Shown in pieces: positions 3,629 through 35,038 of a stretch of 64,000 nucleotides of DNA. The stretch spans positions 27,456 to 91,455 of the IMG/VR virus record IMGVR_UViG_3300025012_000054; one strand, given 5' to 3'. The position numbers and the translations under genes are program-made. Under the pieces are notes generated by a model. It had not been told where the DNA came from and made no database searches. It worked only from the letters and a program-made list of their open reading frames with translations. The first letter of the stretch is position 1. Each line of letters begins with the position of its first letter. The stretch is from a virus.

Positions 3629-4004
3629 GCCCCGAAGAACGTGTAAACATTGTGGTGGACTTTTGGTACAAATAGACGAGATGATGCTGCCCACTATTAG
3701 CCTGTTGAATAAGAAGGGATATCGTACCAGATTTTGTTGTAGCGGTCACGTATATGATGATTTTATTCATCCTTTTCTCTTGTTTCAAACATATGTGATT
3801 TTCGAAAAAAACATTATACTTCCATCAATACCTAAAGATTTTAGATACGATGGCAACTATGAAGACGGAAGATCTTGCATTAGAAAAGATTCATATGATG
3901 GATGGACTGATAGTTATGCCCATTGCGAGTTACTAAGAGGAAATTTATCGCTGATAGAATGGGCAACAATGTTACCACAACATAATGAAAGCAACATTTT
4001 ATAA
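3594..4004 (+). CDS. Hypothetical phage protein (CxxC, T-x-F-CCSGH motif)
   Basis: ORF track; ends at palindrome site 3985-4002. Confidence 0.6.
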   Translation: MLMKSPCGRKYKPRRTCKHCGGLLVQIDEMMLPTISLLNKKGYRTRFCCSGHVYDDFIHPFLLFQTYVIFEKNIILPSIPKDFRYDGNYEDGRSCIRKDSYDGWTDSYAHCELLRGNLSLIEWATMLPQHNESNIL

Positions 4005-4013
4005 AGGAGTTAT

Positions 4014-4214
4014 ATGTTGGAAAAAGATAAAGATCCAACCGGTAAAGATATAAAGAATATGCTATCAGATTTTCACGCTGAAACAGAAACAGACCTGGAA
4101 GAAAATCTGCTGAAAGATTGGAATATGGTAAGATGTGCGATATGCCATAGGCAACTGGATTTATTGGTAGCCGCTTATTTAGACGATGAACCCGTACACC
4201 AATATTGTTTATAG
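4014..4214 (+). CDS. Hypothetical protein (CxxC...HxxC zinc-binding)
   Basis: AAGGAG RBS directly after a palindrome site. Confidence 0.65.
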   Translation: MLEKDKDPTGKDIKNMLSDFHAETETDLEENLLKDWNMVRCAICHRQLDLLVAAYLDDEPVHQYCL

Positions 4215-4223
4215 GATGCCGAT

Positions 4224-4445
4224 ATGATTACCTTGGATTCAATATTACAAATGATATATGATAAGCATGAATCTCTGGAGCGCAAAATGTCCGAAGGCAA
4301 ATCTCGCGGAATGACCCAGATGGAAGAATTCGGATTACTGAGCGAGGATGTAGCTACTATGGAAATCTACAACACTATAATGAAAGATGTTATTGATTGC
4401 AATAAAGATTTAAACAACTATTCGGATTGGCTAAAGACAGCCTAG
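4224..4445 (+). CDS. Hypothetical protein
   Basis: ORF track, tightly packed. Confidence 0.6.
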   Translation: MITLDSILQMIYDKHESLERKMSEGKSRGMTQMEEFGLLSEDVATMEIYNTIMKDVIDCNKDLNNYSDWLKTA

Positions 4446-4453
4446 GAGAAAAA

Positions 4454-4666
4454 ATGGACACCATAAAATTTGAATTAAATACAGACACGGATTACCGCGT
4501 TGTTGCCGAAATATCTTTAAACGGCGTCAGTATTGATGACTATCTCATTGCTTTCAAAGCGTTTCTAATCGCTTGTAGTTTTACCGAACAAACAGTAGAA
4601 GAAATCCAAATGATGGAAAACGCCAGATATATTATCGACAGAGAACAACAAGAAAACAATATTTAA
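4454..4666 (+). CDS. Hypothetical protein
   Basis: AGGAG RBS before ATG 4454. Confidence 0.6.
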   Translation: MDTIKFELNTDTDYRVVAEISLNGVSIDDYLIAFKAFLIACSFTEQTVEEIQMMENARYIIDREQQENNI

Positions 4667-4669
4667 CCC

Positions 4670-4698
4670 TTGACAAGAACGGCAATTGGTGGTAATAT
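4670..4698 (+). promoter_or_regulatory. Sigma70/SigA-type promoter of the tyrosine recombinase
   Basis: TTGACA-17bp-TAATAT with extended -10 TG. Confidence 0.75.
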
Positions 4699-4720
4699 TT
4701 ATATATTCAAGGAGATGATT

Positions 4721-5596
4721 ATGCGAGAATATAATGAATTTATCAAAAATAAAAGCCACTTATCACCACATACGCTAAGAAGTTATAGTAGTACCATATC
4801 TAAATTCTTGGTGCATTACGACGTTAAAGACATTGAAGATTATCGACGGTTACAACTCATTGACTTTGAAAATTATCTCAGCGAATTACCGGTACAAAAC
4901 AGCAGTTACAACGCACATCTGCGCAATCTTCAGGTGTTTTCTTCCTGGCTGCATGATCATAAAATGACCGCTGAAAACATCATCCAGAATATGAAACCCC
5001 GCAAGGAAGAGCGCAAAGATAAGATATCTCTTACAGAAGCAGAAAGACAGGCGATGATTAGTCATGCAGATTCTCTTGACTTCAAACTTAGTCTGGCGCT
5101 GATGTTTTACATGGGGCTACGTCGTGAGGAATTAATCGGAGTAAAAGTGTCGGATATCGGGGGCGATTTCCTGACGGTTTTAGGCAAGGGTAAAAAGAAA
5201 GTTAAGTTAGAAATGCCTCCGATTGTAAAAACGCTGGTAGATGCTTATTTGTCCTTGCGTAAAAGCGATAGCGAATATCTTATTCTTTCAAAGGTAGGAA
5301 AGCACTCACTGTCTAGCAGCGGATCTATTTACAAGCGCGTAAAGTCTGTGGCTAAAAAGGCAGGGATTGCGCCGGAACGAGTTGAGATGATTGCACCCCA
5401 TACTCTCCGCAGGACGTTTGCTTGCTTGGCGGTACAAAACAATGTGTCGCCATATATTGTGAAGGACATGCTCCGCCACAGCCAGTTCAGTACCACCGAG
5501 AGGTATCTTAAAGCCATGGGTTCCGATGTGGCTAACACAGCAATTAGGAATCAGCCGATGCCCAGCGAGGAGGCAATGCAATGGTCGAAGCTATAG
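4721..5596 (+). CDS. Tyrosine recombinase (XerC/D-like integrase)
   Basis: SAM-like N-terminal domain (SPHTLRSY); catalytic R (GLRREE), K (GKGKK), HxxR (HTLRR), H (LRHS), Y (TERY); AAGGAG RBS before ATG 4721. Confidence 0.93.
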   Translation: MREYNEFIKNKSHLSPHTLRSYSSTISKFLVHYDVKDIEDYRRLQLIDFENYLSELPVQNSSYNAHLRNLQVFSSWLHDHKMTAENIIQNMKPRKEERKDKISLTEAERQAMISHADSLDFKLSLALMFYMGLRREELIGVKVSDIGGDFLTVLGKGKKKVKLEMPPIVKTLVDAYLSLRKSDSEYLILSKVGKHSLSSSGSIYKRVKSVAKKAGIAPERVEMIAPHTLRRTFACLAVQNNVSPYIVKDMLRHSQFSTTERYLKAMGSDVANTAIRNQPMPSEEAMQWSKL

Positions 5597-5805
5597 AAAT
5601 ACGATCATGCTTCCTGTGGCAAAACGCCGTCACCTGGTATGAGGAAAAGTATGGAAAGTGTAGTTGGATTGCTAGTGAAAGCGGAGCAAATGTTATCAAT
5701 AGTCTAACTGGTGACTTGGTTGCATATAAAACACATTTTCCCAATCAATATTTTCTCGTTACAGAATATTTTCAAAAATCCCCATGGGGGAAAAAGACAC
5801 AATGA
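5581..5805 (+). CDS. Hypothetical protein
   Basis: GAGGAGG RBS; TGA stop lies inside palindrome 5802. Confidence 0.65.
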   Translation: MVEAIEIRSCFLWQNAVTWYEEKYGKCSWIASESGANVINSLTGDLVAYKTHFPNQYFLVTEYFQKSPWGKKTQ

Positions 5806-33494: not shown

Positions 33495-33523
33495 TAAAAG
33501 GATTTTTTTATTACAAAAGGAGA

Positions 33524-33739
33524 TTGTTTATGGTTAAAAGAATGTTATCATTTTTATGGGGGCTCATGGTTGGTATTTCTATCCTTCAAACCATTCATTA
33601 TCCAGTCGCCGTATCAGAGGATGGGGCTAACATTGTTGATGGTTGGAGCTTTTTTTGCTATTCAGTTATTATAGTTTCTTTTGTAACAATATTTATGTTT
33701 GCTTTGAAGCATATAGTTGAACATTGGGACGACAAATAA
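33524..33739 (+). CDS. Small membrane protein
   Basis: Two hydrophobic segments; flanked by sites. Confidence 0.65.
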   Translation: MFMVKRMLSFLWGLMVGISILQTIHYPVAVSEDGANIVDGWSFFCYSVIIVSFVTIFMFALKHIVEHWDDK

Positions 33740-33764
33740 AATGAATATTTTATAAGGATAATAA

Positions 33765-34046
33765 ATGAAAAAAATTATATTGATAGTTGCTATATTGTGC
33801 GCATTGCTTTGTTCTTGTTCTAAGAATCCACCAGATTTTTGTTATGGAGATTCGTTGGGAAAAATTGTTTCATTAGATATGAAGATGGGAGCATTCAATT
33901 CTTCAGATTATCTTATCATAAATCTAGATAGTGGTGATCAATATGTTCTTCCATCCGCTGGAAGAATTCATAGTACAAATGAGTTTTTATTTTATGATAA
34001 GGATTGCTCACCACATTATTATATATCAACAGATAGAGAACGATAA
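33765..34046 (+). CDS. Putative lipoprotein
   Basis: MKKIILIVAILCALLCSC signal peptide with lipobox. Confidence 0.7.
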   Translation: MKKIILIVAILCALLCSCSKNPPDFCYGDSLGKIVSLDMKMGAFNSSDYLIINLDSGDQYVLPSAGRIHSTNEFLFYDKDCSPHYYISTDRER

Positions 34047-34071
34047 AATAGGTATTTCATAAGGAGATAAT

Positions 34072-34317
34072 ATGAGTCAAAGATATGAGGATTCGCTTGA
34101 TAACCTCGATATAAAAACTGATTTAGAAATGCTACCCCATAGAGGTCAATTGCCGAAATTAGGTGAACTACCTGAAGGTCATTATTTTGTTTATTGGCGT
34201 AATCATACAGATGAATATTACGAAAGTATTGAAACCAAGAGTCGGGACACAATCAAAAAAGCAGTTGGTGTTTGGAATAAAACCATAAAGAAACTAAATA
34301 AAACACTCGTTTCATAA
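34072..34317 (+). CDS. Hypothetical protein
   Basis: AAGGAG RBS; flanked by sites. Confidence 0.6.
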   Translation: MSQRYEDSLDNLDIKTDLEMLPHRGQLPKLGELPEGHYFVYWRNHTDEYYESIETKSRDTIKKAVGVWNKTIKKLNKTLVS

Positions 34318-34328
34318 GGAGAACGATA

Positions 34329-34529
34329 TTGATAGGATCAATTCTTAGTTACGACGACATCTCATTTTTATACGATGAATATTTGAAAACAGAAGATATA
34401 AATTTATTCGTCAAAAATACAGATGGCAAATTTAGAGTAAACCGATCTGAATTGGAAATGATATGGCAAGCCTTCGATAAGGTTAGCGAATATCATCCGA
34501 GAAAGCAGTGGTGGAGCGACTCATGGTAA
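34329..34529 (+). CDS. Hypothetical protein
   Basis: AAGGAG RBS, TTG start. Confidence 0.55.
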   Translation: MIGSILSYDDISFLYDEYLKTEDINLFVKNTDGKFRVNRSELEMIWQAFDKVSEYHPRKQWWSDSW

Positions 34530-34747
34530 AATTTTATCACGAACTCACAATAGGTGAAAGATTCGATATTTATAATATGCGAGTGTCTTGGGACAGGACG
34601 GCTAAAAAACATCCACAACCTCCGTGGTGTGGGCACGAGAACGCCGTTGACGGATTACTGGGATGCGACGATCTGGTGATTCTGGGAACTGTAAAATCAG
34701 AAGCAGATTGTGAAAATTGTCCACTTCATAAAGGAGAGAAATTATGA
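34523..34747 (+). CDS. Hypothetical Cys-rich protein (paralog of 27872..28096)
   Basis: KFYHEL...PQPPWC...GC..L...CxxC. Confidence 0.65.
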   Translation: MVKFYHELTIGERFDIYNMRVSWDRTAKKHPQPPWCGHENAVDGLLGCDDLVILGTVKSEADCENCPLHKGEKL

Positions 34748-35013
34748 TTACGCCAAAAGAGGCATATGATCAATCAACTGTGTCGAAAAAAGAAGTGATG
34801 GATAGATTTGAAATCGAAAATCCTGAAATTATAGAGAAAATTGAAATAGCCATTGACGAAGGCATAAACAGCGGTAAGATCTATACCTATTTTGATTCTA
34901 TAGGCTATAGTTCGGACAAAGTTAAAGAAATTACCGATTATCTTCACTTTCTTGGCTATGATGCAGAGCATAATTTGCAGAGAGAATCTATTTGGATAAA
35001 TTGGTCACAATAA
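34744..35013 (+). CDS. Hypothetical protein
   Basis: MITPKEA...LGY...I.W; stop in site 35010. Confidence 0.65.
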   Translation: MITPKEAYDQSTVSKKEVMDRFEIENPEIIEKIEIAIDEGINSGKIYTYFDSIGYSSDKVKEITDYLHFLGYDAEHNLQRESIWINWSQ

Positions 35014-35038
35014 AATTTACATTTCATAAGGACATATA

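Follow-up and report, generated by a model that had tools for sequence, protein, structure and literature searches.

Locus and repeated element

We analysed bases 27456-91455 (the window, 64,000 nucleotides) of a 91-kb IMG/VR viral contig from groundwater metagenomes (IMGVR_UViG_3300025012_000054), in which an 18-bp sequence, ATRAAA-N6-TTTYAT, recurs between small genes. This sequence, the dyad, consists of two inverted 6-bp arms around a 6-bp centre (6+6+6), and had been interpreted from the letters of the window alone as the punctuation of a phage-borne, integron-like cassette system. Megablast of the window against deposited phage records returned no match and no close relative. The alpha subunit of DNA polymerase III (PolIII-alpha) was ~38% identical to the polymerases of Geobacillus virus E3, Clostridium phage c-st, and Psychrobacillus phage Perkons. 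A 95% identical polymerase was encoded by contig P0001. Evidence from sequencing runs was taken from assembled Logan contigs.

The motif was scanned with dinucleotide-preserving shuffles and the reversed pattern as controls. The window contained 42 exact dyads versus 0.20 expected from the shuffles (maximum of 2), and the whole contig contained 65 copies versus none for the reversed pattern. The interval 3985-35027 held 39 exact dyads and six junction-type copies with one mismatch (at 11662, 12240, 16463, 17579, 27077, and 28802). The original prediction had been correct in counting 45 copies in this interval and in regarding the motif as very rare by chance, and was one short for the exact copies of the window (41 instead of 42). 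It had also placed the copies at gene junctions, and 61 of the 65 copies of the contig were indeed located between open reading frames (ORFs). As it had reported, exact copies were absent from 18020-25659, which includes the replication operon, and from the nucleotide-metabolism operon (35039-38991), and two tyrosine recombinases were encoded, at 4670-5596 (+) and 53464-54477 (-). The late module contained three dyads (40668, 50820, and 56826) instead of the two announced. Dyads were concentrated in plus-strand regions of small genes and were rare in the late module. All genes carried between dyads (the cargo) were co-directional in the arrays.

The features of the window are listed below. Exact dyads were obtained from the pattern scan and one-mismatch copies from the inspection of junctions; dyads are entered with strand '.'. 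Slots are named by the centres of their two bordering dyads, and L125, L128, L129, L130, and L133 are sequences of relatives.

3985..4002 (.) dyad, centre GCAACA; part of the backbone, preceding the recombinase operon; same centre in 9 relatives, with 4 different left neighbours; joint carries a 777-nt insertion in L129
4014..5805 (+) cargo conserved in slot GCAACA..CCTATC; three small ORFs, Xer-like recombinase, 74-aa ORF
4670..5596 (+) Xer-like tyrosine recombinase, 308 aa; may act on the dyads
5802..5819 (.) dyad, centre CCTATC; heads the hypervariable array
6009..6026 (.) dyad, centre GACTGA; 5 left and 7 right neighbours
6750..6767 (.) dyad, centre TCTTGA; homology with L128 starts at base 1; 5/5 left neighbours differ
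7116..7133 (.) dyad, centre GTAAAA; exact; nucleotide-level and backbone comparison
7324..7341 (.) dyad, centre TTGAAC; moves with gene 7145-7324; centre identical in L125, where homology stops 6 nt beyond the right edge
7349..7366 (.) dyad, centre CAATAA; second of an adjacent pair; 2 left and 4 right neighbours; one breakpoint inside the right arm in L133
8559..8576 (.) dyad, centre TAACTG; homology with L128 and L130 starts at base 1; ATGAAA in L130 versus ATAAAA in the window; Logan contigs of runs X3 and X4 end at 8576, its right edge
9411..9428 (.) dyad, centre TGACCG; backbone site common to L125 and L128
10241..10258 (.) dyad, centre GGTGGA; common to L125, with both arms and both flanks different
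10642..10659 (.) dyad, centre CGGTGA; common to L125
10816..10833 (.) dyad, centre GAGATA; next ATG overlaps the right arm
11038..11055 (.) dyad, centre GGAAGA; centre also a Shine-Dalgarno sequence (SD); common to L125
11227..11244 (.) dyad, centre GGAGTA; centre also an SD; common to L125
11641..11658 (.) dyad, centre TAGCGA; exact
11662..11679 (.) one-mismatch dyad, centre TGAGTG; exact copy in L125
12240..12257 (.) one-mismatch dyad, centre CATAGA; at a junction
12738..12755 (.) dyad, centre TCGGTA; contig joint ends 3 nt past the dyad
13023..13040 (.) dyad, centre TGCAAG; borders the methylase slot on its left
14080..14097 (.) dyad, centre CCCACA; borders the methylase slot on its right
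14101..14118 (.) dyad, centre CTAAAA; pairs with the adjacent dyad at 14080
15101..15118 (.) dyad, centre TTGTGC; exact
16463..16480 (.) one-mismatch dyad, centre TTAGGC; follows rtcB
17041..17058 (.) dyad, centre GTATTA; exact
17311..17328 (.) dyad, centre TTATTA; contig joint starts 5 nt past the dyad
17579..17596 (.) one-mismatch dyad, centre TATGTC; at a junction
18002..18019 (.) dyad, centre TAGTAT; final dyad ahead of the replication operon
25660..25677 (.) dyad, centre TAAGAC; next dyad, past the replication operon
26519..26536 (.) dyad, centre CTAGCG; exact
26744..26761 (.) dyad, centre GGAATC; exact
27077..27094 (.) one-mismatch dyad; at a junction
27286..27303 (.) dyad, centre TGGTAG; exact
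27844..27861 (.) dyad, centre GCAATG; exact
28802..28819 (.) one-mismatch dyad; at a junction
29701..29718 (.) dyad, centre GGACTA; exact
30591..30608 (.) dyad, centre CGTGGA; exact
30845..30862 (.) dyad, centre CACGAA; exact
31837..31854 (.) dyad, centre GATTAC; exact
32665..32682 (.) dyad, centre TCACAC; exact
33288..33305 (.) dyad, centre TAAATG; exact
33494..33511 (.) dyad, centre GGATTT; exact
33736..33753 (.) dyad, centre TGAATA; exact
34043..34060 (.) dyad, centre TAGGTA; exact
34298..34315 (.) dyad, centre CACTCG; exact
35010..35027 (.) dyad, centre TTTACA; last before the nucleotide-metabolism operon
40668..40685 (.) dyad, centre TTACTC; lies 80 nt upstream of the endolysin gene (minus strand)
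50820..50837 (.) dyad, centre CCATCG; late module
53464..54477 (-) second tyrosine recombinase, 337 aa, more divergent; in the late module; other candidate for the enzyme
56826..56843 (.) dyad, centre TCCATC; overlaps the stop codon of minus-strand gene 56840-57400

Anatomy and symmetry of the dyad

In most copies, the stop codon of the upstream gene was located within the left arm (A-TRA-AA) or abutted it. The occurrence of A or G at the R position is explained by this embedded stop codon. In the window, the next start codon was found 9-14 nt past the right arm, following an SD in a fixed register; in a second class of dyads the start codon overlapped the right arm (TTTYATG) and the SD was located in the centre. 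The relatives kept the tie to the upstream stop codon, and the distance to the next start codon ranged from 16 to 120 nt.

The four combinations of R and Y in the arms were A..C (17 dyads, the most frequent), G..T (12), A..T (10), and G..C (3), R and Y varying independently. All centres of the window differed, position 1 was never A, and position 6 was T only twice. A..C mismatches represented 26-40% of the arm pairs and were not avoided. Within-site pairing of the flanks was no better than in permuted controls and no compensatory change was detected. Of 10 dyads folded as RNA, only 2 formed the hairpin, with energies of 0 to -3.5 kcal/mol and z-scores near 0. An RNA hairpin was therefore rejected. 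The consensus extended symmetrically into phage-specific outer arms (CCCC/GGGG, ATTA/TAAT, or AAAAC/GTTT), which reached about 10-11 bp in the relatives and in the Bacillus phage SPbeta. An Xer/dif-type core requires two inverted recombinase-binding arms around a central region of 6-8 bp, and the dyad, with its symmetric degeneracy, has this geometry.

Promoter-like and terminator-like sites were not in excess in the array (68 versus 64.8 expected and 11 versus 8.4 expected, respectively), and dyads were not located at promoters but inside long operons. Since neither class was enriched, identity of the dyad with a sigma-70 promoter or a terminator was rejected. Judged from these properties of the sequence, the dyad is a duplex-DNA site for a symmetric protein assembly, neither an RNA structure nor a conventional transcription signal. 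The original description thus held for the diversity of the centres and the bias at their positions 1 and 6, for the independence of the arms, for the tyrosine-recombinase core geometry, and for the preference given to a protein-binding site on double-stranded DNA over an RNA hairpin.

A near-consensus promoter (TTGACA, 17 nt, TATAGT, with TG) was present inside the array at 10063-10127. It is among the few stretches that are conserved in L125 (78% over 65 nt), the genes around it being unrelated.

Orthogonality of the centres

Centres were compared within genomes for 438 sites from 11 genomes, using 5000 shuffles and decoy hexamers located 20 nt downstream. A single pair of identical centres was found versus 9.0 expected (P = 0.0006), and there was no pair of reverse-complement centres versus 6.8 expected (P = 0.001). 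Palindromic centres were absent versus 10.3 expected, a value of 0 that none of the 5000 shuffles reached (0/5000). A conservative estimate for palindromes, based on the observed pair complementarity in the first eight genomes, was 5.35 expected versus 0 observed (P = 0.005). The decoy hexamers were flat, as predicted by chance.

Tyrosine recombinases require matching overlap regions. Direct repeats with the same centre would give deletions, inverted repeats would give inversions, and palindromic centres would lose orientation, so the observed avoidance fits a tyrosine recombinase directed by the centre. A regulatory or an RNA model predicts none of this uniqueness and asymmetry. In Acinetobacter, XerCD only recombines pdif sites with identical or near-identical 6-bp spacers (PMC13141974). 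The avoidance within genomes, together with the order kept between relatives, provides an indirect but specific indication that the identity of the centre may govern the choice of the partner. The tolerance of non-homologous 6-bp overlaps that had been envisaged was not supported, and the data point in the opposite direction: each centre is unique and asymmetric and, in the manner of an address, retains its place on the map.

Breakpoints and ordered scaffold in close relatives

The close relatives were 13 JGI contigs encoding a 94-99% identical recombinase. In all 13, collinear homology at ~90% identity stopped at 5805-5832, the first dyad past the recombinase operon. The slot GCAACA..CCTATC, which contains this operon, harbored a single cargo class in 7 contigs (1799 nt) and was collinear at ~90% identity in all close relatives. 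Beyond 5805-5832, the content of the relatives differed and some genes of the window recurred elsewhere, with edges on dyads. Genes 7145-7324 and 5830-6012 took their 3' dyad, centre included, into other contexts. The onset of homology coincided exactly with base 1 of the dyads at 6750 and 8559, and homology started within 3 nt of the left edge of a dyad in 17% of the cases versus 0.7% for random positions.

Shared dyads behaved as hubs. The CCTATC dyad (5802) was found in 3 upstream contexts and with 8 different downstream genes, and 16 of 20 shared dyad copies had more than one neighbour on both sides versus 0.4% of control 18-mers. The window and L125 had six dyads with identical centres, in the same order and with different spacings, between which no relatedness was detected at the DNA or protein level. 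All close relatives fitted one ordered backbone of centres, units being present or absent but never reordered. Slot GACTGA..TCTTGA harbored five unrelated cargo classes of 220-1200 nt, and identical pairs of flanking centres enclosed 2-5 unrelated cargos, the module replacement that characterizes dif modules. In distant genomes, centres were shared at chance level only. R/Y changes were observed only where the flank on the same side also differed (small numbers; orthologous sites were identical), and no hybrid or consumed dyad was seen. A variant contig, recovered in runs from two studies, lacked exactly the DNA-methylase gene (13052-14083). Position 13041 was joined to 14075 with one extra T, leaving three dyads in tandem.

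Adjacent pairs of dyads, 3-7 nt apart, were present at 7324-7366 and 14080-14118 of the window and at 7962-8004 of the contig. They look like empty slots or like the meeting of a gene carrying a 3' dyad with a gene carrying a 5' dyad. In L130 (2225-2245) and L133 (1038-1058), a collapsed dyad (ATGA, one base, TTTCA, then an SD) occupied the place of the full CCTATC dyad of other relatives and was followed by an extra gene of ~260 nt ending in the full dyad.

SPbeta and phi3T

SPbeta and phi3T had 11 centres in common, in the same order. For two shared dyads, homology was nil on the left and began at base 1 of the dyad; one dyad was common with both flanks unrelated. A 3.2-kb block of 99.97% identity started at base 1 of a dyad and ended inside the next, the first difference being located at the Y position of the closing dyad. 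A 1.65-kb block of 99.7% identity also started at a dyad. Homology ended at dyads in 6 of 44 cases versus 0.93 expected (P = 3e-4). Some of the SPbeta dyads had been annotated as stem-loops by the depositors. The centre at 99497-99514 of SPbeta was found as its exact reverse complement at 89339-89356 of phi3T, the flanks being unrelated. The site may have been inverted, or the match may be a coincidence (chance roughly 0.2).

SPbeta also contains SPBRE, the operator of the recombinase-fold repressor MrpR/YopR/SroF, which is bound at about ten sites in promoter regions. The repressor box of phi3T is a 26-bp asymmetric sequence read by a monomer. The box-like sequences that we located in SPbeta formed a motif distinct from the dyad, merely abutting two dyads. 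Identity of the dyad with SPBRE was rejected, the box of SPbeta being a different and asymmetric motif. At 113663-113705 and 132746-132790 of SPbeta, the SroF/MrpR box was located directly 3' of a dyad, the final bases of which it overlapped. An interaction between repression and dyads is thus possible in this phage.

Distribution of the dyad

Uncultured relatives were retrieved from IMG/VR by an alignment query with the polymerase. Relatives with 51-72% polymerase identity harbored 30-84 dyads per record (0-4 for controls), and more distant relatives almost none. Among cultured phages, dyads were found in SPbeta (14), phi3T (16), Perkons (38), E3 (24), Sophrita (19), and c-st (14), with 0-2 for controls. 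The scan of the full genome and of relatives that had been called for thus extended the motif to the rest of the contig and to related records, and the anticipated presence of the motif in SPbeta-like phages was confirmed. G011 (122,829 bp) duplicates part of G013 (168,212 bp) at 100% identity, and these records, which lie behind L040 and L049, are not independent genomes.

The preferred arms differed by phage (ATAAAA/TTTTAT in 55/55 dyads of G013; mostly ATGAAA/TTTCAT in G001), which argues for a phage-specific reader. In G001, ATAGAACA..TGTTC was found at about -14 of several dyads at 115-122 kb (L061 and L062), an element that resembles a LexA box (GAAC-N4-GTTC), and the local repeat CTTAACAGA followed dyads at 124-127 kb.

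Candidate recombinases

The gene of the Xer-like recombinase (4670-5596) was located 209 nt upstream of the head of the array. The protein contained the Pfam Phage_integrase and SAM-like N-terminal domains. Its best NCBIfam matches were XerA, XerC, and XerD, all below cut-off, and the R, K, HxxR, H, and Y residues were all present in the alignment to XerA. Scores against IntI models were 56.5 bits for TIGR02249 (cut-off 265) and 26.8 for PRK15417 (cut-off 435). An IntI-type integrase was rejected for this protein, which had no IntI-specific domain and remained far below the TIGR02249 cut-off. The second recombinase, encoded at 53464-54477 (-), scored 59.7 bits for PF00589, above cut-off, with HxxR, W, and Y present. 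Its position among late structural genes parallels that of SPbeta yomM, which encodes a site-specific integrase in the tail-gene region and has a dyad about 400 bp from the gene end. The lysogeny operon of SPbeta encodes YopP, a XerC-superfamily protein of unknown function.

Sites of single-recombinase Xer systems resemble the dyad. In the difH site of H. pylori, which has the arm AGTTATGAAAA, the inverted arms are near-identical and enclose a 6-bp centre; specific reading is confined to the inner 5 bp, and there is hardly any contact with the centre (PMC5357621, PMC5241119). The arms of difSL are ...CCGAAAA / TTTTC..., and the xerS and xerH genes adjoin their sites (PMC5357621, PMC5241119). 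The recombinase encoded at 4670-5596 is the first candidate for an action on the dyads. The second recombinase or a host Xer enzyme may read them instead.

Co-occurrence and synteny of the recombinase across genomes were not discriminating. No classical DNA-binding protein emerged when the proteins of G000 were screened for joint occurrence with the motif. An FmdB-like zinc-ribbon protein (25438-25641), which has no known sequence-specific role, tracked the motif in four relatives. The phage also encodes an AAA_24 (Sak4-like) ATPase and a PD-(D/E)XK nuclease, a homologous-recombination module.

Other features of the window

The HNH endonuclease gene (16490-17044) was associated with a joint that 'goes back 500' and with a depth spike in run X3, which suggests extra or mobile copies in the community. 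Upstream of the array, 514-3420 contained two or three glycosyltransferase genes, and unrelated sequence replaced the middle one (1337-2302) in close relatives.

Proposed model of register-preserving cassette exchange

We consider it reasonably probable that the dyads are heterospecific Xer-type recombination sites used for in-register exchange of cassettes between related phages. Each arm, comprising ATRAAA and the weaker phage-specific outer bases, would bind one monomer of the phage-encoded Xer-like recombinase, and the 6-bp centre would be the overlap region in which strands are exchanged. Owing to unique and non-palindromic centres, the sites of one genome would not recombine with each other, preventing deletions and inversions. 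Each dyad would instead recombine, in register and in one orientation, with the site having the same centre in a co-infecting or resident relative. Two crossovers at neighbouring dyads would swap the gene or genes located between them, a natural form of recombinase-mediated cassette exchange. The outcome would be a conserved scaffold in which addressed joints keep their order while the accessory cargo between them is freely replaced. We infer from sequence that the dyads are bound and cut by a recombinase, and by which one, and that the identity of the centre determines the partner.

The original proposal that the dyads are recombination joints of an integron-like system was retained in part. 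Mosaic breakpoints were found at dyad edges, both in the relatives and between SPbeta and phi3T, but capture and excision of cassettes found no counterpart in the data, in which no hybrid or consumed site was seen. The integron-like character itself was abandoned, since the recombinase is Xer-like and not IntI, and since the methylase-less variant keeps both dyads. The proposed coincidence of gene gain and loss with the sites received a divided answer. Edges were enriched at dyads, many switch points coinciding with base 1, the right edge, or the Y position, but others were spread over the junction, from a few to 30 nt outside.

Several observations weigh against register-preserving exchange. 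Breakpoints were scattered over the junction instead of marking one phosphodiester, and were found past the embedded stop codon, at either edge of the dyad, past the SD, and at the ATG. Ordinary stop/SD junctions devoid of dyad were also mosaic, so that part of the signal is accounted for by selection for intact genes. Two insertions had entered right after the ATGA of the left arm, without a dyad of their own. In the methylase-less variant, which retains both flanking dyads, the end points were 1 nt and 5 nt outside the dyads. The presence of the recombinase did not track the abundance of the motif, the motif-poor G012 having a homolog, and Perkons and SPbeta only carry distant tyrosine recombinases. 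Laboratory hybrids between SPbeta and phi3Ts were joined in homologous regions. Finally, the first entry of new cargo into a slot is unexplained by the model.

Part of these observations would be accommodated if the dyads were conserved linkers with another primary role, the swapping resulting from relaxed homologous recombination or illegitimate recombination at microhomologies, followed by selection. The phage encodes the ATPase and nuclease of such a pathway, breakpoints are spread over junctions and also found at dyad-less ones, and the laboratory hybrids formed by homology. The repeated intergenic elements of T4-type phages (PeSLs) show that such elements are able to drive shuffling (PMC2839356). 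We nevertheless regard this explanation as unlikely. At many hubs the 18-bp dyad alone is shared, and retention of the centre with replacement of both flanks places the crossovers within 6-bp arms, which are too short for homologous recombination. Avoidance of palindromic centres is not predicted either, and the promoter, terminator, and RNA-fold tests revealed no other primary role.

Two-fold symmetry is equally expected of sites for a symmetric regulator or a genome organiser, such as a non-catalytic recombinase fold similar to MrpR/SroF, that would silence or insulate early genes, recombination being incidental. The distribution of dyads at nearly every early-gene junction, and their absence from the replication, nucleotide-metabolism, and most late operons, would suit such a role, for which SPbeta offers the precedent of a recombinase-fold repressor with dispersed sites and of a repressor box directly abutting two dyads. 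This possibility appears quite improbable to us, since dyads are found inside long operons rather than at promoters, the window enzyme keeps all catalytic residues, and unique, asymmetric centres conserved in order amid replaced surroundings are left unexplained. The MrpR/YopR-type operator that had originally been offered as the alternative was not supported either, the SPbeta box being different, asymmetric, and read by a monomer, and the dyads not being located at promoters. A role of the dyads as RNA, as an intercistronic hairpin or protein site for re-initiation of translation or for processing or stability of mRNA, would account for the stop codon in the left arm and for the SD after the right arm in fixed register or in the centre. 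It is very hard to reconcile with frequent A..C mismatches lacking compensatory change, weak folds, a variable distance to the next start codon in relatives, and the orthogonality of the centres, and we attribute to it a minimal probability.

Phage genomes are mosaics with breakpoints at gene boundaries, and the usual account is random illegitimate recombination followed by selection. If register-preserving exchange occurs, addressed site-specific recombination would provide a mechanistic answer to mosaicism for a large group of phages. It would also explain the fast turnover of accessory genes (anti-defence and host takeover) with gene order intact, and would give orphan Xer-like recombinases, SPbeta YopP among them, a function. 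We see even chances that a large group of Firmicutes phages, spanning uncultured groundwater phages as well as SPbeta, phi3T, Perkons, and Geobacillus virus E3, has a built-in system of cassette exchange. In its full scope, which we hold at the same even chances, this system would comprise dozens of sites with identical arms and mutually orthogonal asymmetric 6-bp overlaps, and a phage Xer-like enzyme. Accessory genes would be traded between relatives slot by slot, the gene order never being scrambled and the phage's own genome never deleted. The sites could supply dozens of natural orthogonal recombination sites for genome engineering. Since SPbeta and phi3T carry the dyad, the idea is directly testable in Bacillus subtilis.

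Comparison with known systems

The dyad system is neither an integron nor a PeSL system. It resembles integrons in that a recombinase gene heads an array whose single-gene units mostly lack promoters, and in that each unit has a site tied to its 3' end, sometimes with the stop codon inside the site. However, the window enzyme is devoid of the IntI-specific domain, and the dyads are fixed 18-bp duplexes showing no stable fold or covariation, whereas attC sites are long, folded, and variable. The conserved order of the sites and the uniqueness of the centres point to in-register exchange rather than to excision and reinsertion at attI. In T4-type phages, repeated intergenic elements likewise mark insertions, deletions, and replacements in hyperplastic early regions (PMC2839356). 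PeSLs, however, consist of a sigma-70 promoter and a terminator stem-loop, recombine by homology, and give mini-circles (PMC2839356), whereas the dyads are neither promoters, terminators, nor stable hairpins and have only 12 fixed bases in common.

SPBRE is, like the dyad, a dispersed intergenic motif of the same phage group, with a tyrosine-recombinase-fold reader and an ATAAAA-like hexamer. It differs from the dyad in being longer and asymmetric (a box of 15-26 bp), read by a monomer, and located in about ten promoter regions. The difH/XerH, difSL/XerS, and archaeal dif/XerA systems have near-identical inverted arms (GAAAA / TTTTC) around a 6-bp centre (PMC5357621, PMC5241119). As in the window, whose enzyme best matches XerA, XerC, and XerD, the recombinase gene is next to the site. 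These systems rely on one site per chromosome for dimer resolution, whereas the phage has dozens of sites at gene junctions and an enzyme that is below every Xer family cut-off.

The closest known system is provided by the dif modules of Acinetobacter. The dyads differ from these in being located in a phage genome, in having symmetric arms, and in showing no alternation of C/D module orientation. The phage modules are mostly single small genes in one direction, with 40-80 sites per genome having distinct centres in a fixed order, and the candidate enzyme is a single phage Xer-like recombinase instead of host XerC and XerD. In Acinetobacter, as in these phages, many Xer-type sites with a 6-bp centre bound accessory modules, which are shuffled or replaced between replicons (PMC13141974). 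Recombination there needs identical or near-identical centres, and two crossovers between sites with the same centres have been proposed to exchange single modules (PMC13141974), as we propose for the cargo of the phage slots.

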